Shown here piece by piece: positions 1 through 14,332 of a DNA stretch of 14,332 bases (position 1 is the stretch's first letter; every line of letters starts with the position of its first letter). The notes beneath the pieces are model-generated. The model did no database searches. It saw nothing but the letters and a program-made list of their open reading frames with translations, and had not been told where the DNA came from. This DNA is from Paraspadella gotoi. Lineage: Eukaryota; Animalia; Chaetognatha. The position numbers were made by a program, and so were the translations under genes. The stretch lies in contig JBJCIZ010000365.1 of assembly GCA_051294375.1 (NCBI GenBank), forward strand, positions 1 to 14,332, given 5' to 3'.

Positions 1-1312
1 ACTCAATAATTAATCAAAAAATTAATAACCAATCCATCAATAATCACTTTTAATAATCAGCATTAAGGAAATTAAGAAGAATTGCATGAGCCATTTAAAA
101 AATATTCAAATATAATACTCCATAACATTTTTTTTTAAAAAAATTTAAAAAACTGAGCTTTAAAGTTAAATGAGATTTAGCTATTTTATTATAGGAATAT
201 TTATTATTTTTTTAGATATTTATTCTAAGTAGGTTGAACTCAGGCTGATTGCTTTATCTGATATTTATCATATATTGATAAAAAATATATTTATTTATAA
301 TAAATATAATAAAGGATTATTTTATCTTCAAGCAGTCTGTACATGAAGAATCTACAAAGTTGTAGCACACCTTGGTTAGAAGTATGGTATGATTAGTCTA
401 ATCATTTATATGGACCATATTTAATAAAAAATTAAGGATTTTATTCTTTATTAAAAAAAAGCTTTATCAGCTAGGCAAGGCCTTTTGTCCACATCCTCCA
501 GGCATATTTGGGAAATGCCTTTAACATTGTCGTATAACAGATGCTGTTCAAAAATTTAATTAAAAAAGTAACTACTACGAGTATGTTGGCCAGCTATTAA
601 AGCTATTTTGATAACATAAACTTTCCTTTTTTTTTAATTGATGGGGGTGTGGAGACTAAATTTTCAGAATCCTTCAAAAAAAGATGGCTCCCATGAAAAG
701 TTGTTGGTCAATCAAATTATAATTCAACAAAAACTTTTATCTTATCTATTTTTATTAAACTGTCTCTTACTATCTAATTAATAGATATCATATTTTGTAC
801 ATAATTTAAGTAATTATAAAAACCTGTACAAGAAGTATTCCTCCAGGATGTAAACATACTTTGGATTTTCAAAAAAGAGGTTATGAAATGAAGCTTAAAG
901 CGGCTGTGTTAATGAAAATAATTTTATAAGACCTTATTATAGTACCATCAGCACTCAAAAGATATTCTACTCTTTATTTTAATTAGCTACCACCTCCTCC
1001 AGCATATTGTAAATGCTGCAGCAGAGCCTCCAGAGGTTGGTAAGATCTGAAAATTTATTTGAAATTTAAACTCTCATATACTTTTACAACTAATACATTA
1101 AGTGGACACAAAAACCGTACTTACTTTAGACACAATTAACTATGAAGTGAACGTGGTTGTGCCAAAAAATCCTTCAAGGCAGGTAGCACGGCCAGTGTAT
1201 TTCAACTTTATTTAAATGGCGTTGTCCTAACATCTTTTTTTAGGCCTCCACATATTAATTTCTGAGACCTTATTTGAAATCCGAGCAACCTTTGGCATTT
1301 TGGCACACCCTA

Positions 1313-1438
1313 ATGTTCGGCTTACATACAACCTTTTTAGCGTTAACACAATTATTTGTGAATTTTTGTAATTTAAAAATTCACAAATAATCTGTTTTAA
1401 CGCTGAAAGAAGGCTTGTGTTGTAAGCCGCGAAACATG
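1313..1438. repeat. Long imperfect palindrome (foldback/MITE-like)
   Basis: Perfect 17-bp inverted repeat 1351-1367/1375-1391 (ATTATTTGTGAATTTTT) with a 7-nt loop, extended outward by AGCGTTAA/TTAACGCT and CGGCTTACA/TGTAAGCCG. Confidence 0.85.
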
Positions 1439-1545
1439 TACGTTTTTACCAAAATAAAGTCGTTTGTAGGAAAAACATTAAAAGTCTTCCAAGAAAACGA
1501 GAACAAAAAAGAGTAAAAGAAGAGAGAAAGGAAATAAAAGGGGGT

Positions 1546-1645
1546 AGAATTAGAATAGCAATTAGAATTAGGAATAGAATTAAAATAGAATGAATAGAAT
1601 AGAATAGATAGAATAAATAGAATTAAAATAGAATAGAATTAGAAA
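1546..1645 (+). repeat. Degenerate (AATAG/AATTAG)n microsatellite within a purine-rich tract
   Basis: Repeated TAGAA/TAGAAT units read directly from the sequence. Confidence 0.85.
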
Positions 1646-1787
1646 AGATTTCAGGAGAAGAAACGAAATAAAAGAAAAGAAAGAGGAAAAAAAAGAAAAG
1701 AAAAAAAAAAGAGAAAAGAAAGAAAACTGTGGAGTAAGCGGCGTCGTTATTCTTGAGGATAAATTTGCATCAGTTTCGCATCGGACC

Positions 1788-1816
1788 TGGCATCGAGTGG
1801 CATCGAGTGGCATCGA
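1788..1816 (+). repeat. Tandem 10-mer TGGCATCGAG x~3
   Basis: Two exact copies plus a 9-nt copy. Confidence 0.9.
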
Positions 1817-2317
1817 AGTCGGCGTTGGGGGTGCGTGGATTAGATGAAAAAATGTACATTAGATGGCATCAGTAAATACCCAGCGGTTTATTGAAAGAAA
1901 AGCAAAATAGCCACTTATTTACGAGCATTGAATGTACATATGAATGTGGCGAATTCCCCATGGCATCATATCGAGTGCGTGATAATTTATTAAATTCAAT
2001 ACATTAATGTTTCAGAGATATAGAGATTAACAAACAATATTTTGAAACAAGAAAATAACAACTTTTGTCATAGAATGTTAGGGGCATTGAAGTATATCAC
2101 TGAGAATTAAAGTACTATGCCTTTGATGGTTGTAAAAATGGCAACAAATGTGATTCCGAATGCATCAACAATGGCACCGAACATGCATCGATGGCCACCA
2201 AATTTAGACGACGCAAACACTTTTCTATTTCTCGTGCAACTTGCGATCAAACGCGATACTGCGTTGCACGAATTCTTTGATTGAGCTCTTGTTCTTACCG
2301 TTTTGCGTTCGTTGAAT

Positions 2318-2456
2318 GAGAGGAGAGTGAGAGAGTTGTGAGAGGAGAGGAGAGAGACGAATGGAGAAGAGACGAGATGAGAGATGAGAGGAGATGTGAA
2401 GAGACGAGATGAGAGAGAGAGGAGAGAGAGAGAGAAAGACGAAGAGAGAGAGAGGA
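2318..2456 (+). repeat. Imperfect (GA)n microsatellite
   Basis: Direct reading. Confidence 0.9.
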
Positions 2457-5242
2457 CAATAGACAATAGACAATATTAATTATTGCCGCGCCTTTAGGCA
2501 CCTGAGGGCCTTTAAAAGCTACCTAATTTCTCTGAATATTAACAAATTGTAATCTGACTTTTGTAAACGTGCATCGCACCTAACTACAGGTGCGGTTGAA
2601 CCAATTTTCATGACACCTCTTCCAATTGACATTGACACAGATTCGCTCCTTTCCTCAGTATCCCAACCAGAAGTAGTCTATGGAGATTATATTTGGTTTG
2701 ATACGATTAAAAGAATACTATTCAATAATGTTCATCAAACAAATTTTAAAACGAATTATGACACAATGAAAAATGGCCCCGTAACGTTACTGTCTCCGTG
2801 CATAAAAACAAATCAACTATTCTAATATTATTATATTTCTTTTTTAATTTTTAAACGTTATAGTTTCATATGTTGATATTCCAAAATATCAATGCAAAAT
2901 CTTTTTTTGTTTTTTAGAAATATGACTGGGGAATGAATATTAGGGTGAAGATGATAATTTTTTTAAAAAAGTTACTTATTTTCATTATTTATTCATAGAA
3001 TTGTAATTAATAAAAAATTTAAAAAAAATATGAGTACTAATAGTTAGTGTTATTGTCTCAAATAGGATGGAAAAAAACCTCATTTTAAAATTCGATCGGG
3101 GAAGTTGCGGGTAACTAGGCTTACCAATAGATCCTCCACGCCAATTTGTTCTCTCAAATAATTTATTATTTATTTAATACATTATGAAAGGGAAAAAAAG
3201 AAAAATTTTGGAATGAGGTTGCAGAAAGTAGTACAAGATATTGACTTATTGACATGATAACCAATACCTATTTATATCTTGTGAAATTGGGGGCAGTAAG
3301 AATCTAAAAAATATTCATCATATAAGTCAGTCCAATAACCCCTTTCCAATGGGCTATTACGAGAAATATTTTTTCCTTAATTAAAATGGATGATAAATAA
3401 TTAGAATTAAATTCTTGCTAATATTTTAAAAAAAATTATCAATAACATTTAAATTACATGATGTTTTGCTTTTTCAAATATGTTACCAGATATAATAATT
3501 TTTTAACAACATTTATTATGATAAGACAAGCAGAGGTGTCAATAACCTTATTAAGTTTGCAGTATAAAGATAATGAAAAATTGACGATTTTATTTTTCAC
3601 AGTACAAAGAAGGTAGATAGAATCCCAGACTGTTTATATTCAGCTTGAAAACATTTTTTTATTTATCTTTTTAATATTTGAAAATACATTTTATCAAAGC
3701 TACAACATGAATTTTTGCTTGTTTTTTACTTTTTACTTGAAAATATGAGCAATTTTATGGAATAACAAAAATTTAAAATAAAACAAAATGAATTCAGTCT
3801 TTCCCTTTTTTCAAAATTACAAAAGCGAACAAAGAAAAAAATTTCATATGCCTATCATTGAAATTTTTTTAAAAAGCAAAAAACTGTTAGTTACTATTTT
3901 AACTCTGATTTTAAAACAAAAGGCTGTGTAAAGATTACTGGTTTAATTTAATTAAAACTCCTTTTAGAAAGGTGTCCCATGATTTAGGGCTTTAATTTGA
4001 TACACATCCACCTTGCTAACCTCTTTTTTTTTCAAAAGTTTATTTAAAAAATATAACTTTTTTAAAATTAAGCATACAAATCTTTGTTAATAAAAAAATT
4101 TCGGCAAAGCGGGAGTTTATCTCACTTATTTGCATTGGTACAATACTTTAAATTCAAAATTAAACTTTGAAGAAAATTTTTTTTGTCATTTAGAGCATAT
4201 CACTTTCAGATGTACCCATCGTATAATTAATTTATTTATTTTATTTCCCCCAAAAAGCCTAATTAGAAAAGTTAAAAATTTTGTCAAATTGTTTGGAAAA
4301 AAATTTCTGTCCACCTATGCTCATTTGAGAATAATGGTTTTGCCATAGAAAATCAAAATATCAAAAAAATAAAAAAATCAGCTCTAGAATAATCAATAGG
4401 CTAGAGGCTGATTTTTTTTAGATTTGCAAAATTTTTTCATGACTTCATAATCCTTATTCTCAAATTTCAAAATATTTTTTTTCAAAATCATTAAATCAAT
4501 TTTTTTTATTAATTTTAAAATGTTTTTAATGATGTTGTTTTTGTTTGAAAGAATTGAAAAAAAAGTGAAAATATATAATATATAAGGTTTTTCGAAATAC
4601 TTTAAAATATTAAATAAGTGTTAGCACACAAGGGGGAGTAAGCAGAGAAACTTCCCATTTCATAAAGAAAATTGAAAATAGAATTTGTCATATTGTTATT
4701 TGATTTAATTGGACTAATTACAAACAAATGATCATTTATAAAGTGAGGAAATGTGGGTAAAAAATATTCATTCTTGGTCTCGGGTTATACTATTAGCGTT
4801 ATCTAAAGTTGTTTTAATAATTTAATATTTTTTTTTGCATTTATAAAAGCCAAGGTCTAATTATGTAAGCATTTCGAGCTATATTGCTTTCATATTTTTT
4901 ACTATTTTTGATCTAGTTTAGCTTTTTATGTTGATGGTCAAGGGTTTATGGTCAGTACAGTATGTTCCAAGTAGTGTATAATCGCACATATTACCAAAAG
5001 TAATGCATCAATTAATTTGGCTCATAAAACAATTTTTAAAGGGAACAAAATCAGCACGAGACCGTTTTCGCCACGTTATTTTTCATTGTGTCTTATACGA
5101 GATTAGCATTCTGTCTAGAAAATGTCGCTACATATTGCTGTAAGTGATCATGTCTTGCTGCAATCTTATAAAACATTCAGAAGGGGTATGGAGGGTAAAT
5201 TTGAAAAGTTCTTAGGCCAAAAGTACCTTGAAGCTTGTCAAA

Positions 5243-5299
5243 GAGAGAGAGAGAGAATGAGAGAGAGAGAGAGAGAGAGAGGGAGGAGAGGAAGAGAAG
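5243..5299 (+). repeat. (GA)n microsatellite
   Basis: Direct reading. Confidence 0.92.
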
Positions 5300-5797
5300 G
5301 AATTGCCACAGTTAATTTTAAAACTGAGAATGGGTCCCGGGAATTTTGCCACTCAGTTAATTTAAACGGAGATATGGGTGTTATTTTCAATGGCACACTG
5401 TTTTAAGGTAATTCATTGATTTCAATTGATTTTTTCATTTTTCGGACGTTGAAAAAAGTTTAGTTTAAAAAAGTTTATCCTTTTCTTCTGGGGAGGAATT
5501 CCAATGTAATTTAAAATTTATCTATCTTTAAATAAAACTACAAAATAACAATGTAATTATAATTAAAACGTTGATTGTTTTTTGTATTTTTATAATTAAA
5601 TTTTTTTCTCTTTTCTTTATTTCATTTTTATTTCCTTATTTATTTTTCTCCTCCTTTTTTATTAATTTTCTTCCTTTTCTTCAATTTCCTTTTTTCCCAT
5701 TTTTTCGCCGACCGCTTCCGATTCAACCACAATTAAGAAAAACTTATCAATTTTTCAATTTTTTTTACAAGAAAACGATTCGAGGAAAGGGAGGAGC

Positions 5798-5890
5798 GAG
5801 AGAGAGAGTAGAGAGAGTAGAGAGAGAAGAGAGAGAGAGAGAGAGAGGATGAGAGGAGAGCAGGAGAGAGTAGGAGAGTAGAGAGAGAGA
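5798..5890 (+). repeat. Imperfect (GA)n / GAGAGTA microsatellite
   Basis: Direct reading. Confidence 0.9.
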
Positions 5891-6746
5891 AAAAAAAAAT
5901 TCAGAGCTCCAATAATCTACTTAAAAAAAACTGGGGTAGTTATAAAATTTTATAAGATTAACAAATAATTAAATATTTCTAGTTTTACAGTTTTTTATTT
6001 AGTTTGTTTCTTTTTTTATTTGTGAAACTGAAAAATCAGAATTTTTTAAATTTTTTAAATTTAAAATAAAAAAAGATTTTTTTCCAACATTTTTTCTTTC
6101 ACGAAATAGGTCACGTGACTTTTAAACGAAAACAAGAAAGAAAAATTATGGATCGCTATTTTATCGAACTGAAAAAAAATATTATTTTTGATGGAATCAA
6201 GTTTAAAAAAATTTGAAGATGTAATTTGCATTTCCTGAGCACGAGAACTTCCGATGTTTTAATTTCACATTTAATATTTATTAATAAGGTAAGTGTATTT
6301 TTTTTCTCTGTTAATAATGCGGGAAGGCTCGAACGTTTTTCCAGACACGCGAATTTGGCGAGGTCACCTTGAGGGCAAAAAAAAATTTTTTCAAGAGACT
6401 TTGAATTCAAATTTATTAATATTTTTATTAATTAAAAAAAGTTGATTTTTATTTAAATATTAATAAATTATTTTTTTTTTCATAATGTTAATGTGATTTG
6501 AAAAAATTGTTTTTTTTTCATTTGGGTGTGGATCTTAAATCAATTAATTTTTAGAATAAATTTTCAAATTTGTGAATGAAATTGAATTTTTCTTTTTTCA
6601 TTCTTCCTCAGTATATTGAATTTCTATCATGATACCGTGCCACTGTATTCACGGGGCGCATTTAAAAACGGCCCGCCGCCATTTTTCCGCCGGGCAATTT
6701 TTGCGAATTACAAAGTTTAAACCGGCAGTTGACCCGAAATTTCTGC

Positions 6747-7052
6747 GCGAACGACAAGAAAAACGACGACGACGACGACAAAGATGACGACGAACGAAGA
6801 ACGACGAACGACGACGATGAAGATGACGGATATTTTTTCCTTTGAACTAAATCGTTTCATCTTCGGATTAACGAAACGAACATTTCACAGGTCCATTTAT
6901 ATCGGAAAGTTGTCGTCTTCGTCGTTCGTCTCGTCGTTCGTTGTCGTCGTGCGGTCGTGTTTCTCGTGTTATCACCGTCGTTCGTCTTTCGTTCGTCGGT
7001 CGTTTCGTTATCGTTTTCGTTCGTCTTTATCGTCGTCGTCGTCGTTCGTCGC
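6747..7052. repeat. Foldback-like element with arms built from (ACG)n and (CGT)n subrepeats
   Basis: 6763-6787 matches the reverse complement of 7021-7045 at 23/25 nt. ACG-rich left arm, CGT-rich right arm, AT-rich spacer ~6830-6910. Confidence 0.8.
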
Positions 7053-7149
7053 TTCTCTGGGATTTGTGTCGCAATGGAGATTTTAATCTCGAAATGATTC
7101 GCTCTTTAAGAGTAGGTCATTCCGAAGCTTTAAGGGTAGGTCGTCAGGA

Positions 7150-7166
7150 AGAGATAGAGAGAGGAG

Positions 7167-7197
<31 letters not shown>

Positions 7198-7203
7198 GAG
7201 AGG
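7150..7203 (+). repeat. Imperfect (GA)n microsatellite
   Basis: Direct reading. Confidence 0.9.
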
Positions 7204-7356
7204 AACGTTAACGGTTTTTTGCAACGAACTCTCCCAAACGATGGAAAAAAAAAAAGAAAACGGTGACAAACAGAAGAGCAGGAGAGAGAGAGAGAAGGAG
7301 GGAAGAAGCTTTTTATTTCCCAATTATGTTTTACCTTATTACTTTTTCTTAACATT

Positions 7357-7395
7357 TCTCTCTCTCTCTCTCTCTCTCTCTCTTCTTCTCTCTCT
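7357..7395 (+). repeat. (TC)n microsatellite
   Basis: Direct reading; opposite orientation to the GA tracts at 7150-7203 and 7280-7300. Confidence 0.9.
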
Positions 7396-7978
7396 TAACG
7401 ACGACGGAATTCTGTTTTATCTCCAAAGTCAAAACTCAAAAGAGGAATATTCAGAGAACATTTTTTTTTACTGAAAGTAGAATAGAGAAAGAAAGGAAGA
7501 AAAAGACAAAGCATAAAAAAAAAGACGAAAAGAAAAAGAAAGATTAATGGGAAATTTAAAAAAAATAAACAAAAAAAGAAAGAGAAAGAAATATATATGT
7601 ATGAAATTGGCTTACAAACCAATAGATATATATTTTTTTTTATCACGCGAATCGAAATATTAGAAGAAAATTTATAAGGAAATATTGAGATCGGAAAAGC
7701 AGTGGACGCCATTCTTGATTTGATTTATTATTTTTATGGACGGAATAAAAGTTTTAAAATTAAGGAAATTTATATATAAAGAGAATGTTTAACTAAAAAG
7801 GGAAAGTGTGTAAACAAAACGAGCAAAGTTTTTTATCAAGATTATTGTTTAATATTAGATTAGTTTTATATCAGAATATTTTATATAGATTATTTAGTTA
7901 AGAGTCCGTGATATTAAGATAGTATATCACTCCTTAAAACGTGAATATTAAGATTTTGAATATTAAAAAAGAAATCCT

Positions 7979-8694
7979 TGTTGTCTTAATGTAAGAACTA
8001 AATATAAAGTCTTTATGATATGAACATGATCTTTTATTGATACTCTGAGTGATAGCCGCCTCTCGCTTCGCCGCCGTCGTAGCTGGTTACGGAGGATCCT
8101 GCCGTCCCCCATGTCCCCGCTGCACGCCTCCGTGAAGGGAGCGTGGCCGCGTACCAGCGCCGGTATGCCGCTAGTGCGCCGAACCCGTCTGTCAGCCAGT
8201 AGAGATTGGAGGACGGTAGTCGGCGATGGCATTGCGTTCACCCATGTGGACGAATGTGGTGGGCCAACAGAGTCCGTCCACCAGTCAATATGACGGGGCT
8301 AAAGTCTGACCACGAGTACCAGCCCACGAGTGACAGGTTTCCTTTTTGGGTAATCGGTCTCGCCACAAGCCCCTTTCTAGGCCTGACAATCACTCTGTAC
8401 CTTATTGAACCGGACTGTTACAAAGCGTGACACTAATATCTGGTGGACATGAGTGGCCGTCCTGGACTCAGCATACCGTTAATAAAGGCGTTTGGTGACG
8501 GGCGCAGCGAATATGGAAGTCTAAGAATCTACATGGCCTAGCAAATATCATGGTAAGAAAAAGCGACAAGAGGAAGTCTGTAAATTCTCCTAAAGAAAAG
8601 AGCAAAAAAAGACATTCTTCGGCAGAAACAGGTAATAACAAAAGGCACAAAAAATAACATGGGGGAAAAAAGAAAGCGAGGACATTATCCTACA
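7979..8694 (-). repeat. Candidate 3' LTR (distal end at 7979 or possibly 7809)
   Basis: Starts TGT directly after the PPT-like tract. AATAAA on the minus strand at 8038-8033, then ...TAAGACAACA ending at 7979; an alternative ...TTTACA end at 7809 would give TGTA...TACA. The second LTR is outside the window, so this is unverified. Confidence 0.42.
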
Positions 8695-8704
8695 CCCCCA
8701 CCTC
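8695..8704 (-). other. Candidate polypurine tract (PPT)
   Basis: Minus strand GAGGTGGGGG immediately followed by TGTAGG, in the same orientation as pol. Confidence 0.45.
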
Positions 8705-10095
8705 AGCAGCGCTCCATCAGCAAGCCGCGTGGAAAACACATCCAACAAAGACCACTCTGATCTGAAGGCACGGCCATAGTGCAAAGGCATGTCGAACCAA
8801 GAAGAAGAAGAAAGCAAATCAATGAAAAAGACGGGCGAAGAGAGGATTCAAGATACGATGGAAATAAAGAGATGAGGTCTAAGAGAAGAAAGAAAAAACA
8901 AAAATAAAATAAAAAAAGCAGAAAATAAACTAGAAAAACAAAAATCAAGCAAAATGGGAGAAAAGGGAAAGAATATATTTCTTTATCCGTCTGTACTTAG
9001 CCTGTCAAAAAACTGTACACCCTTCTAATTTAATTTTTATCGTGATTGATTTTTACGTCTAATGAAATTGGGAAAATGACAATACATCATGCTAATAGTA
9101 GAACTAGAACATATTTCTTTTTTTTTTCACAGTGCGAAATTACACAATGTTTTTTTGTTTAAAACTCATTGTCACGTTAATATAACGCTTGAATAACAAA
9201 TCTTTCCGTCACTCGCGTCGAATTTTGATAGAGAGCGTAATCAGTTGAACAATAATTAGTACATTAAATTGCTACTTAATACAAAACGGTATAAGATTCT
9301 CAGATATCTTATTTTTTACTATTTTTTAATCGAACGTTTATTCATTCACGGCTAAATAAAATTTTTCAGAATCAATTTGCACGAAGATTAAACGTCGAGA
9401 AATAACTACGAAACTTACCCTTTCCTTACAGAAGCAAAAAACGTGATCTCTCTCTTTTAAAGATTAATGAACCTTAAAATTTTACTGAGTTTATTCATTT
9501 TCGCCATATGTAAAAGTAAACAATATAATAACGAAATCGTAAATACCGTATTACCAACGGAGGACCAGGGGGCAGAAAGTATCTTGAAATCATTGATTAG
9601 GTAAAAATCGTTCTTGAGGAACTATATAATAAAACTTTGACTAATTTCTTATAGAACCATTTCTACTTAACATCTTTTTCTATTGATAACATGAATACTT
9701 ACGTTAATAAACAAATAAATAAATTCTGTTTTGTTCGTCTGCCGGCCGAAATCACCTACGTAAATACCGAGCGCCGTTTATGCCAACAGTGGATAGTCGA
9801 AGACATAAAAAACGGTTCGCACCTCGCGGGTCTTACCCGTACTAGTCGGCTGACTTCTCCGAGAAAACGTTTAGATCACTCGCGTCTTCCGTGAAACGTC
9901 AAAACAATCCGAGTATTTTTAAATATATGCTCCATAATCGAGTATCATTTTCCGAGATTCAATGATCAGTTCTAAATTCAGAGAAGCCCGCGGGCTTGTT
10001 GGGCTGATTCAGCTCCCGCGACGACCGCGCCTCGACCGCGCCCGGGCCCGCGGGGATGTCGGTCGGCGGGGGCGCGGGCTTCGGCGCCTCGTCGC

Positions 10096-10939
10096 TCAAG
10101 GGTTGTCGTCGTTCATCTTTAAATCTTGTTCGTCCTCTTCGTCTTCGCCAAGGATGGCTCTCTCTTCCGCCGGAGTAAGTTCCGGGATCGTAGGAGAGGG
10201 TGGAAGGTGAGAGAGAGTCTCGGCGACCGAGACGAAGGAATCGTCGTCATCAGTTGACGCCAGAGTCGTCGATGAGGTCGCTGGTTGAATCGCCGTTGCT
10301 GACGATGAAGCAGAAGGGCCTGAGGTAGTTTCGTCGGTCGAATTCTCTATATAGAGCGTCGCCGTGGCCCTAAACTCCTCGCGAACGTCTTGGTTACGAA
10401 AACCATGAGGGTTCGACTCTCGTTGAAGTGTCGTCGAGGACTGACGTTTCTTTGAAGAGCGAGGGCGATCCTTACCCTCAAGCCAACGCTTGTAGCCTCG
10501 CCACCATTTCTCGTCGTGTTTCGAGAGCGTGCCGGATTGTAGACGCCGGTCTGCTTCGCGGCGAGAGTCGTCAACAGAACGAATCTTTGGTCGAACGGCT
10601 TGGTTTTCGTCCACCTTTTTCTTTTCTTCCTCTTCTTTCTTCTTTTCTTCCGCCTTTTTCTTTTCTTCCTCCCTCTTTCTTTCCTCCTCCTCCCTCTCCT
10701 CTCGTGCCTGCCTCTTCCTTTCCCCCAAATCTCTCCTCTGCTCCTCCTCCCTCCTCTCCTCCTCCTTCCTCTCCACCTCGCTCCGGGCGTCCACGGACGA
10801 CGCTAAGCTCGAAGTAGAACCAAAATCTCGCCTCTTTTTCTCCCGGACCTTCATGGCCAGCCAATCTTCATCAACTTGTTTGAGGAAGTACTCGACGCCA
10901 AGGGTTGAGTCGGGAGAGTCCGTGACGAGGGTTCCATGT
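10096..10939 (-). CDS. Accessory gene, exon 2: E/K/R-rich coiled-coil or charged single helix, Trp-containing basic segment, S/T-rich and acidic tail
   Basis: The frame of ORF 10096..10854 stays open upstream to the acceptor (HGTLVTDSPDSTLGVEYFLKQVDEDWLAMKVREKK...). It probably extends to 9959 if one C is missing in the CCC run before the TGA. Confidence 0.7.
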
Positions 10940-11129
10940 CTGTGTGGAGGGAAGAGAGGGGGAAGGGGAAGGGAGAAATCGAACGCGGAGGTGGAAAGGG
11001 AAGGAGAAGGGGAAAGGAAGAAAAGGGGTAAAAGGAAAAAAAATTCAAATTAATTAAATGTCATTAGTTAAGCACATGAATCAATTTTCGACGTTCAACT
11101 TTATCTCAAATTATTTCATTGTAAAAAAC
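10940..11129 (-). other. Predicted 190-nt phase-2 spliceosomal intron in the accessory gene
   Basis: GT at 11129-11128; branch-like TAACTAAT (11070-11063); ~100-nt polypyrimidine tract; no AG on the minus strand from 11098 to 10942; CACAG acceptor ending at 10940. The splice gives AG|A (Arg) and then CAT GGA ACC..., open and in frame with the 10854 ATG (84 nt downstream). Confidence 0.7.
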
Positions 11130-12289
11130 CTCCGTTGGCCAGGTTCTGTAGGCGTAGTCAAGTCGTGGATGGGGGTCGATGTTTGGTTGGGCGTATACAT
11201 AGGGATACGACCCAAAATGCCCGCCGACAGATCGTCGTTAATTTCGGATTCTCGGCGCGCCGCCCGCTCGGCCGCCTCCTCCTCTTCTACTCGATCGTAC
11301 CAGGATTTAACGGAGGTCGACTCCTGGAAGAGTGACAGCCCTGTGTCCTGGGGAGTTTGTATTTTGTTCGACGTAATTCCTTTTAGAGCGTCGAGGTTGA
11401 AGGGGTCGTTAGGATCGACTTCCTCTTCCATCTTTTCTTCTTCCTCATCTTCTTTCTCAACATCTTCCTCTACGGTGGAGAGAGGCCCGGCCGGTTGATG
11501 GCCAGTTACGGCCATCAAATCAGCCGGAGGTTTGGAGGCGCCTGCCACGGGGCCAAAATTGGCCTTCGCAGCGCGCGTCTCTTTCACCCACTTCCTGTGG
11601 TCGAACATCCTCTGGTTATGGATCGCCTGACGTCTCACGCTCCTCCTTTTCCTTCTTTGTCCCGGACGAGGGAGCGCGGGTGTCGCCTCCTCATCCGAGA
11701 CCCTTTCCTCCTCTCCCTCGGGCAAATCCGGCTCCGCCTCCAGGATCACCACCCGTCGCGCCGGTGGTACCGGTGCCGTCGGGGTGACTGGGGGCGGAGT
11801 CGGGACCCGGGTTCGAGGGGGAACCGCTGAGGGGCGTGAGACGTCGGAGGGCACGCGCCCGGAGGACGTGCCCTCCGCCGAGGTGTACGCTCCCAGGAAA
11901 CGCCGGGCCTCCTCTAGGCTTTGAAATGATCTCGTCTGCAGCGAAGCGACGGCTGAATCCGGGGCACTGGAGACGGTACAAACTGGGGACCAGTTGACTT
12001 GATCCGTAATGATCACTGATCGGGAGGGGCCGACGTCTCGAAGTCTCCAGAGCGCGGAGAGAGCGCCTTCTGGAGGGAGTAAGGCGATGAGGTCGCCGGC
12101 GTCCGCCCATGTCCCAAGCTGTGACTCGAACTCTTCCGCCGTCAGCGCACCGATCAAGGCGTACGCCGCGGCCTGATACTTTCGTCTGCCGAAAACAATC
12201 CATGCGGCAGACGCGCCCACGACGATAGGGTGGAACGTCATTATCGTCGTCGTCTTCCCGGGATAAACCGTTGAACGGGGGTTCGCCAT
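11130..12289 (-). CDS. Accessory (non-env) gene downstream of pol, exon 1: ~135-aa globular-looking N-terminal domain, then Pro-rich, basic and acidic low-complexity region
   Basis: 392-codon ORF (12289-11111) beginning ACG ATG G about 255 nt after the pol stop. It is GC-rich and CpG-rich like pol and bounded by AT-rich spacers. Candidate donor GAG|GTTTTT between 11130 and 11129, where GC content drops. Confidence 0.75.
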
Positions 12290-12543
12290 CGTAATTCAGG
12301 AAATATTATGAAAAATCGCTCTAAGACACAGTGACGAATTAAATATTATAATTAGATAACAGAGAAAATATATTTTTTGAACATTTATAAATAACTCAAC
12401 GGTACAAGAACACATATATTTTTTTTGAATTCATTTCACGTAAGTCGTAAAAATTCTATAATTCTCCTCATCATCGCGTTCGACCAAACTAAACGAATAG
12501 TCGTCGAGTTTGTCAACGATAATAATAACAAATCGCAAAATAG

Positions 12544-14332
12544 TTAATCGCATTCGAGGGGCACTAAACGATTAACGGTCGCGATCGAAATATTTGTCTC
12601 CTGCAGTTCGGACAGTCACGCGCCTTACGTGACTTCCGTTACCATGTCGACCACGCGTGCGAGCCTCCATTGATCTCTTGCTTTGAGCTCATCGACCATG
12701 AGCACGATCTGACCTTCTTTCAGGTTTTCTTGCGTGGTTGACCATTTTTGCCTTTCTTGCAGGGTAACCACGTATTCTTTTGTCCATCGATCCCAAAACT
12801 CGTCGCTAATTCGACGAGCCTCTTTCCAAGAGCTTCTGAAGCGCCTCGCCGTCGAGGATTCGGGAGGTACGATGACCCTTCTCGAGGGAGCTTGGACGCC
12901 GGGATACAAGAGATCTGCTGGCGTCAGCGCGTCGAGACTGTCCGGATCATCAGGACCCCCGTCAGCGGGGCGTCGATTGAGGATACCTTCGACTGACGCG
13001 AGAGCCGTTCGTCAGTACTTCGACGTGGAGTTTGTCTTTCCCGAGTAAGACCGTTAAATGTTTTTTCGTAGATTTTTATCAAGCGTTCCAAACGCCGCCC
13101 CAATGCGAAGCCAGGGGCGGAGAGAAGGTCCATTCGATCCCGTATTCGATCATACTCCGGGAGATCTGTTCGTTTTTCCATCTTTCGACCGCTGCCCTCA
13201 GTTCCGCATCGGCGCCGTGGAAATTTGCTTCCATTGTCGCTGTAGAAGCGTTTGGAGCCTGGACGACGCGCGTTGAATCGAATGAGGGCGTTGATGAAGG
13301 ACGAAGGCTGATAAATCGTGTAGTACTTCCGAGGTGGACCGCGCGCATTTTCATGCACGTGAAGAGGACAACCCATCGTTTCGCGCTACCGCGTCCTCCG
13401 TGTACGACGCGGAACGGCCGAATGCGTCGACGCCCGTTGCTTCAAAAGGGTGCTCCTTGGTCGAGTCGGTCGGCTGGTAAGTCTCCCATCTTTTGCGTCG
13501 CGGGGCAACGAAAATTCCTTTGACAGATAAACGCAGCGGCGCAGCAGTAGACGCAGTACCTGCCGCATCGAGGGGAAGAAGAAGCGGCGTCGAATCACGG
13601 ACATAACTTGTTCGACGCCCGCGTGTCCTTCCATGAAGTGCACGTGGCGTACGTAATCGTCGACGTTGTCGTCTTTCTTCGGGAGTACGATTGGGTGGCG
13701 GGTGCTATACGGAAGATTTGCCTTTCCGATTCTCCCGCCAACGCGGATGATGTCTTCGTCGTCGAGAAAGGGATTGAGCGAGCGAAGTTTCGATTTTTTG
13801 AGCGTGAGTTCCGCGCGTGAGTCCGGGGAACGAATCTTTTTCTCTTTGAGTTGGTGATCTGTCGGCATGTATTCTGTTTTGTAGAGCGGCGACCCAGCCA
13901 TTTTTTCGGCATCTTTCGTATCCTTTAACGTCGTAGTGCGAATTTTTTGTGGCTGAGCATTAGAGTCCAGTTTTAATGCTCGTCTCCATTCGATCCAACG
14001 GGTAATACATTTTTTCATTCCCGCGATCAAGTACAATTTTTTGCGAGTGTCCGACGTTTGTTTTGCGATACGCAAAACCCAGTTTTCTTTCGGTGTCTCA
14101 TCTTTTTTGCATTCCATTTCTTCCGCCTCAGTCGCAAAGACGTCTGACGCCAACGGTGTCGGGGAGAGCTTCTGTTCCGGCCACTCTTCTTCCGGACATC
14201 GGAGGAAATCAGGACCAGCGTGAAAGCGCGCCCATTTTGCGTCGTTGACGCAAAGACCACGACTGCAGTCATCGGCGGGGTTCTCGTCTGTGTGAACGTA
14301 TCTCCATTCGCTGACGTCCGTCAATTCCCTAA
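12544..14332 (-). mobile_element. pol: BEL/Pao (Belpaoviridae-type) LTR retrotransposon pol, 3' part: RNase H C-terminus + integrase; frameshifted; continues beyond the window
   Basis: Motifs read on the minus strand across shifting frames: WRYVHTDENPADDCSRG and W..GPDFL...EEEWP (BEL/Pao RNase H end); LNPFLDDEDIIRVGGRI...RHPIVLP; H-x4-H...C-x2-C zinc finger (HFMEGHAG...RRCV(Y)C); TGVDAFG (D, 13426-13428); KRWVVLFTCMKMRAVHL; FYSDNGSNF (D, 13236-13238); PPLASHWGGVWER (E, 13086-13088); ILNRRPLT; FWDRWTKEYVVTLQERQKW; WRLARV...VRRVTVRT...RLVPLECD* with stop at 12546-12544. RNase H-then-integrase order plus these motifs are characteristic of BEL/Pao. Confidence 0.96.

Follow-up and report, generated by a model that had tools for sequence, protein, structure and literature searches.

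The window, a 14,332-nt stretch of Paraspadella gotoi DNA (contig JBJCIZ010000365.1, positions 1 to 14,332), is AT-rich eukaryotic DNA with a left flank of 30% GC, and a GC-rich element occupies its minus strand from the right edge to about position 7979. This is a BEL/Pao element in which a third protein gene, not of the envelope kind, lies between pol and the 3' end. The window ends within pol, so that gag and the long terminal repeat (LTR) on the 5' side are outside it. The original prediction, made from the bare sequence, had placed two co-oriented GC-rich open reading frames (ORFs) about 255 nt past the integrase stop and before a candidate polypurine tract and LTR. We found both frames; the spacer measures 254 nt, and the tract GAGGTGGGGG (8704-8695), followed by TGT at 8694, lies beyond them (Table 1).

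The first frame, ORF A, runs on the minus strand from an ATG at 12289 to a stop at 11111 (392 aa), and ORF B, in a different frame of the same strand, from 11049 to a stop at 10096. Frames as long as these were reached in 0 of 500 and 2 of 500 dinucleotide shuffles, respectively. A composition like that of pol had also been claimed. This holds for GC content (0.60 in ORF A and 0.54 in ORF B versus 0.53 in pol; flank 0.30) but not for CpG richness, as the CpG ratios of ORF A (1.13), ORF B (1.19), and the flank (1.11) all fall short of the 1.51 of pol. Contigs from sequencing runs X1, X3, and X4 match the gene region in long pieces with 0-2 differences, and a single contig crosses the spacer and gene start (11570-12463) with 0 differences. 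The best-matching run may be the one from which the window itself derives.

A candidate intron with AG|GT at 11129 and CAG| at 10939 joins ORF A and ORF B in phase into 667 codons. The 10939 acceptor has the highest pyrimidine share of the 184 AG sites in 12600-9900 (0.88; next 0.71) and ranks second among the 109 YAG sites of the whole element. The change point in GC content, at 11128, coincides with the donor and not with the ORF A stop (log-likelihood -0.9 versus -6.5), and the first Met of ORF B occurs only at exon-2 residue 29. Contigs of X1, X3, and X9 cross the junction between the frames with 0 differences, and it is therefore not an assembly slip. A splice from 11129 to 10940 is the simplest route to 667 aa, and these sequence signals make it the probable one; the protein would then be translated from a separate subgenomic mRNA. 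Of the 667 to 713 aa that had been predicted, the lower figure stands as the spliced length, through an intron that had not been named. To reach 713 aa, the reading frame would have to shift near 10096, and contigs of three runs show 0 gaps over about 10075-10656, which reaches only 20-24 letters past the stop. The frame that would supply the longer tail (10246-9959) is within chance length (333 of 500 shuffles reach it). Together with a strong donor-like site within exon 2 (AGG|GTAAGG at 10475, minus strand), it leaves room for another putative C-terminal isoform.

The two frames might instead give separate products, as happens in complex retroviruses: ORF A would terminate at its stop codon, and a different splice, from an upstream donor in the leader or gag, would lead into ORF B. 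ORF A does have its own ATG and stop, the 11129 donor is weak, and the 10939 acceptor could be used by any upstream donor. Nevertheless, GC content stays coding-like only as far as the donor, 18 nt short of the ORF A stop, and the donor and acceptor phases agree, which leaves this arrangement with perhaps one chance in a few. It concerns gene structure and can be combined with any of the functional readings below.

The gene exists in several diverged copies. At 80% likeness over 11860-12340, the version seen in the window and three to five diverged contigs occur together in each of four sequencing runs (two studies) out of the nine listed, contrary to the single-copy host sequence that the original prediction had named among its refuting cases. 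In X1, five different contigs overlap at 11865-11884, and five types at 15% or more divergence are presumably not alleles of one locus. One diverged copy spans 11860-12290 with 66 differences (about 15%) and two compensating gap pairs, and is alike in X1, X4, and X7 (two studies). Another agrees in all of 21 nt spanning the ATG; two others have the same length and are diverged over the skipped parts. Differences are listed for 40 of 75 rows, and in a wider comparison for 40 of 312 rows, 30 of them in exon 1.

All of the 40 listed differences come from the copy with 66. Twenty-six fall on third codon positions (P 4e-5), 25 are silent, 15 are non-silent, and none creates a stop, which corresponds to a ratio of non-silent to silent proportions (pN/pS) of 0.215 (P 1.7e-6), or 0.209 without the two rows at gap pairs. 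In the worst case, with all 26 unlisted differences counted as non-silent, the ratio is 0.59 (P 0.027). In shifted frames, 5-7 differences are silent; the in-register antisense frame has 20, but plus frames carry 4-7 stops. Given this silent excess, residues 1-140 are a protein under purifying selection between diverged copies, the outcome for which the original prediction had proposed a dN/dS comparison. The selection evidence comes from exon 1, where aa 1-140 were tested; farther along exon 1, aa 219-245 have three silent and one non-silent among the differences listed. An overlapping frame of 204 codons (12305-11691) was discarded, as it is without selection (7 of the 40 differences silent).

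Summed contig depth in X1 is about 250 at 11860-11893; the contig of the window itself contributes 42 of comparison, and pol has 390-960. Depth is not copy number, but these values suggest a multi-copy gene that either changes more rapidly than pol or is absent from part of the copies. It could be asked whether the gene is a passenger, i.e., a separate nested element or captured host gene with no role for the BEL/Pao element. The lower depth over the gene, with some pol copies possibly lacking it, would fit such a passenger, as would the fact that no listed contig joins a diverged copy to pol. However, no internal terminal repeats are listed, the orientation and GC content of the gene agree with pol, no homologue occurs among host-type proteins, and the spacer, the 3' non-coding stretch near 9717, and the start of the polypurine tract and LTR are multi-copy too. 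We regard the passenger as improbable, and the other copies very likely occupy the same position in their own elements. A pol-based scan gave five loci, of which only L003 reaches the pol end (26% identity); it has no long frame in the 1.4 kb beyond, and is too distant and short to bear on the matter.

The pol part matches Integrase_H2C2 (E 2e-7) and DUF5641 (E 3.5e-18) in Pfam, in separate frames, and tblastn pieces fall in three minus frames with similarity extending to 12581. Several of the single-base gaps in pol are places where the whole or almost the whole of the contig depth disagrees with the window (12 of 97 gap rows listed; none inside the accessory gene), so some of the pol frame breaks are probably assembly errors in a repeat. 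A search with one pol frame returned 748 relatives (E<=0.001). Of the best 120, almost every one has Peptidase_A17 and/or DUF5641, the nearest carry Peptidase_A17, and full-length matches among them have 36% identity or less. In a tree of 62 rows (the window and 61 of the 120, picked as ranks 1-40 or as named rows with 150-420 aligned residues), the window's pol falls into a 100/99 clade with seven unnamed European Nucleotide Archive Pao proteins (P0001-P0006 and P0036), separate from every named row, whether insect, fish, mollusc, or other. The BEL/Pao context that had been predicted is thus borne out, and passages of PMC2774666 describe BEL/Pao elements from animals only. The nearest pol relatives, P0001-P0006, have 1300-1440 aa and no DUF1759, and P0001 begins at the protease; gag and pol are therefore probably separate frames in this clade.

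Table 1. Features of the element in the window.
Feature	Position	Strand	Remarks
BEL/Pao pol, 3' part (RNase H region end, integrase zinc finger, core, DUF5641)	12544..14332	(-)	Pfam, tblastn; cut by window edge
AT-rich spacer, pol end to accessory ATG	12290..12543	(-)	254 nt, 28% GC
Accessory exon 1	11130..12289	(-)	386 codons + 2 nt
aa 81-136, strand-strand-helix-helix, ending in a motif like the Cauli_VI C-terminal helix	11882..12049	(-)	weak lead
Candidate GT-AG intron	10940..11129	(-)	190 nt, phase 2; long polypyrimidine tract; holds ORF A stop (11113-11111)
Candidate accessory exon 2	10096..10939	(-)	280 codons
GC-rich alternative frame, overlapping exon 2 end	9959..10246	(-)	95 codons; 70% GC over 9959-10095
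AT-rich 3' non-coding region	8705..9958	(-)	GTRAG donor-like sites 9836, 9702, 9429, 9418; strong acceptor-like site 8878
Polypurine tract GAGGTGGGGG	8695..8704	(-)	runs directly into TGT at 8694
Candidate 3' LTR, TGT...ACA	7979..8694	(-)	716 nt; AATAAA at 8038; well-placed start but tentative far end

The polypurine tract and the adjoining TGT lie 1.4 kb downstream of ORF B, and the tract has the roughly 10 nt expected in BEL/Pao elements. The LTR test gave one candidate of 716 nt with a multi-copy start (paired LTRs of BEL/Pao elements measure 0.2-1.2 kb), and at 8267 and 8588-8809 the contigs reach a depth of about the same order as in pol. Gaps in contig coverage of the 3' region and LTR were not taken as absence. 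No acceptor-like site of the element is stronger than the one at 8878 in the 3' non-coding region (minus strand, pyrimidine share 0.90), and with the four GTRAG donor-like sites there may be a further intron in the 3' untranslated region (sites at 8878-9000 and 9418-9836). Acceptor-like sites with pyrimidine tracts are also present inside the candidate LTR (8589 and 8537-8528, minus strand). Within the 3' non-coding region, a short piece at 9698-9919 is common to further copies at high depth and is possibly a cis element acting at the level of sequence; folding of 9700-9960 was no better than that of shuffles (z 0.78), and Rfam gave no match.

In the left flank, short CpG-poor exon-like pieces amid AT-rich stretches at 330-1050 read equally well on the plus strand and probably belong to a host gene; one 28-residue piece from there had no Pfam match. 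Low-complexity GAC/GTC and GA repeats are found at 6750-7050, 2300-2460, 5240-5300, 5790-5890, and 7130-7400.

Exon 1 encodes the constrained domain (aa 1-140), a Pro-rich linker, an acidic stretch, an Arg-rich helix (aa 212-243, containing RRKRR), and a second acidic stretch. Exon 2 continues with KKRR, then a long tract rich in Glu, Lys, and Arg that is predicted to form a coiled coil, and finally an acidic tail rich in Ser and Thr. Confidence in the AlphaFold model is highest in the Arg-rich helix (predicted local distance difference test score, pLDDT, about 80), and the 667-residue product of the likely spliced form would be mostly disordered. Almost no cysteine and no C-terminal transmembrane anchor had been predicted. 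The count is one cysteine in exon 1 and none in exon 2 (one in 666 translated residues), and the best 19-residue hydropathy is 0.39 in exon 2 and -0.35 in the alternative tail. As judged from the single cysteine and the missing anchor, the product is not an Env. A highly diverged env or small membrane fusogen would explain the env position of the gene, and aa 16-34 are mildly hydrophobic (hydropathy 1.63, the one measure used in looking for a signal peptide), yet the strongly charged, low-complexity composition adds to the cysteine count and lack of anchor in making such an origin extremely improbable.

We found no homologue of the protein. Searches with the whole of ORF A and with aa 78-142 at E 10 (both against proteins of 215-686 aa) were blank, as were those of PDB sequences, of 435 pattern matches in JGI metagenomes, and of 32 in viral contigs. 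A phage search gave five rows at E 2-9 only, and Pfam and PHROGs, the two collections against which exon 2 was scanned, returned compositional rows only. The sole match among 1.84 billion representatives (P0175, E 1e-4) was set aside as a chance match, since its score adds up one weak match that recurs three times within a DUF285 surface protein. With no homologue in a collection of that size, the N-terminal domain may be a new small RNA-binding fold. Three fold searches with the low-confidence model gave nothing clear: the best hit (Z 4.0) was unrelated, and no hybrid-binding or L9-like chain was among the rows listed. Our verdict is that the accessory gene is real, selected, associated with the element, and of a new sequence family.

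A weak lead to a function is a resemblance to Cauli_VI (PF01693), the hybrid-binding domain of caulimovirus P6/TAV and RNase H1. In the Atlas, aa 1-150 are nearest to Cauli_VI clusters with a score of 0.76, and ten of ten family matches fall into this one family; the lead level of the Atlas is 0.9. We built a home-made profile from 212 distinct domains (238 of 240 loci usable; three of three spot checks were PF01693), selected on the YAV..GR..G motif and strict there. As it was chosen after the Atlas lead, the profile test is post hoc and not independent. It aligned aa 120-135 to profile positions 33-48 with 6.4 bits, a score that one shuffle in 2000 attained and none of 1017 windows from BEL polyproteins, and hhalign gave 46% locally and a global P of 0.037, each above 150 of 150 shuffles. 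The resemblance consists mainly of these 16 residues, which contain the C-terminal Phe...Glu-Ala..Phe helix motif. Q118, S121, and F122 have silent differences only among the rows listed, and S124 changes. The second model (pLDDT 48.8) has two strands and then two helices over aa 91-137, and the family fold has three strands and two helices. The Pfam family itself (cut-off 21 bits) gave no match at E 10, and the N-terminal aromatic-Ala-Val..Gly-Arg..Gly core is unmatched, with a global alignment confidence of 0 there. Because the test was post hoc, Pfam and the fold searches were blank, and the core is unmatched, we consider the resemblance weak and do not file the protein as a family member.

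If the resemblance were genuine, the protein might act like P6/TAV: a degenerate RNase H1 hybrid-binding domain would bind double-stranded RNA or RNA:DNA hybrids, and the disordered remainder would scaffold cytoplasmic particle assembly, translation, or silencing suppression. P6 has such a motif and binds hybrids and double-stranded RNA, according to parts of PMC5902531, and the Atlas and profile scores point the same way. Set against the sub-threshold Atlas score, the post hoc test, the Pfam miss, the unmatched core, and the absence of such a fold among the fold-search rows listed (for a low-confidence model), a P6-like role is unlikely. We give about the same weight to a factor acting on chromatin or on the targeting of integration, or to a nucleic-acid chaperone that Gag would package. 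The alternating acidic and basic tracts and the nuclear-localisation-like motifs would suit histone or nucleic-acid chaperones, but Pfam and motif scans revealed no chromodomain, zinc knuckle, or PxVxL motif.

The explanation that we favour, as a tentative one, is an RNA-binding factor of the Rev/CERV kind through which full-length RNA that still contains the intron would get out of the nucleus. When the DNA copy of a retroelement retains an intron, this implies that unspliced RNA is exported and copied. If the candidate intron is real, the packaged RNA must keep it together with the other donor- and acceptor-like sites and still leave the nucleus. The basic motifs (RRKRR in the helix at aa 212-243, and KKRR) would carry the protein to the nucleus, the N-terminal domain and Arg-rich helix would bind element RNA, the charged coiled coil would oligomerise, and the resulting complex would allow unspliced gag-pol RNA to be exported or to remain stable. 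The gene's location, its likely splicing, the basic motifs, and the fast divergence are in keeping with the role of CERV.

Several points weigh against this explanation. The gene lacks a CERV-like cysteine loop (one Cys), and the match to a nuclear export signal (NES) at aa 354-364 is a loose pattern only. The donor, AG|GTTTTT, departs from GTRAG, which occurs at seven sites elsewhere in the element. Over the Pro-rich linker (aa 141-199), the differences listed are 7 silent ones and 19 non-silent ones, close to neutrality; none of the contigs listed joins a diverged copy to pol or an LTR, and both single-sequence AlphaFold models are of low confidence (mean pLDDT 49.5 and 48.8). We hold the export role to be possible but short of probable. 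A more far-reaching version, with a low chance of being right, is that this BEL/Pao clade is a complex retrovirus-like element whose spliced regulator was made from a degenerate RNase H1 hybrid-binding domain and an arginine-rich RNA-binding helix, as an independent counterpart of Rev, CERV, or P6. The observation of the original prediction is confirmed. Its interpretation as an intracellular accessory protein, possibly for RNA export, silencing evasion, or targeting, is partly supported, in the BEL/Pao context, the non-env character, the diverged copies, and the selection on aa 1-140.

Among the closest known systems is CERV of Cer1, a Ty3/gypsy element of C. elegans. In the part of the CERV report used here (PMC10309623), CERV is the spliced, non-env, homologue-free product of a 3' ORF with a nuclear localisation signal (NLS) and an NES; its first exons are in the gag frame, it has three folded domains with a cysteine loop in the M domain, and Cer1 uses it to solve the export of unspliced genomic RNA. 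The accessory gene resembles it, as described there, in being a large non-env ORF in the interval from pol to the 3' LTR with fast divergence and NLS- and NES-like motifs, with splicing as a candidate only. CERV has homologues only in close kin, and the accessory protein is likewise without a detected homologue. Unlike CERV, it accompanies a BEL/Pao pol and has its own ATG after pol, in a region kept in other copies, although an added upstream exon is possible. Where CERV has three domains and a cysteine loop, it has one Cys and is mostly disordered; the two are compared here by their descriptions.

Within BEL/Pao, the known extra genes had been said to be mostly env-like. This fits the International Committee on Taxonomy of Viruses profile of Belpaoviridae (PMC8742986), which lists gag, pol, and env and calls replication poorly understood. 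Tas, Cer7, roo, and the mosquito elements with Chuviridae glycoproteins likewise have a third gene after pol in the portions used of PMC8742986, PMC554778, and PMC13524379. Unlike the env-bearing members, the third gene here has no glycoprotein features, and its presence departs from the family's gene set, which is a description and not an exclusion criterion. Cer19 is a BEL/Pao element too. Its ORF2, in Caenorhabditis, is described in the excerpt used of PMC7084138 as an expressed gene that accompanies gag-pol within the LTRs and has no known function; the zf-CCHC knuckles reported there distinguish it from the accessory protein, which has no zinc knuckle. In rotifer LTR elements, non-env genes were similarly captured at the ORF3 position, but the ORF3s in the sections used of PMC5408684 are recognisable enzymes (GDSL esterase and DEDDy exonuclease) in Ty3/gypsy-type clades. 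Non-env extra genes thus have precedents in CERV, Cer19-ORF2, and the rotifer ORF3s, which qualifies the claim about env-like extras. A literature search, broad in part and with most subscription papers outside it, showed no gene at this position of a BEL/Pao element that was neither an env nor a zinc-knuckle gene. Older papers on the Cer elements of C. elegans may describe extra BEL ORFs.

The P6/TAV and RNase H1 N-terminal domain shares with the accessory protein an association, putative for the accessory protein, with the regulation of a reverse-transcribing element and a weak match in the last-helix motif (parts of PMC5902531), and it differs in the family cut-off, which the accessory protein misses, and in the N-terminal core motif, which is unmatched. 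As a selected, probably spliced, non-env third gene, the accessory gene indicates that Belpaoviridae acquire regulatory genes too. It offers, beside Rev, CERV, and P6, a test case for how LTR elements export intron-retaining RNA or evade silencing.

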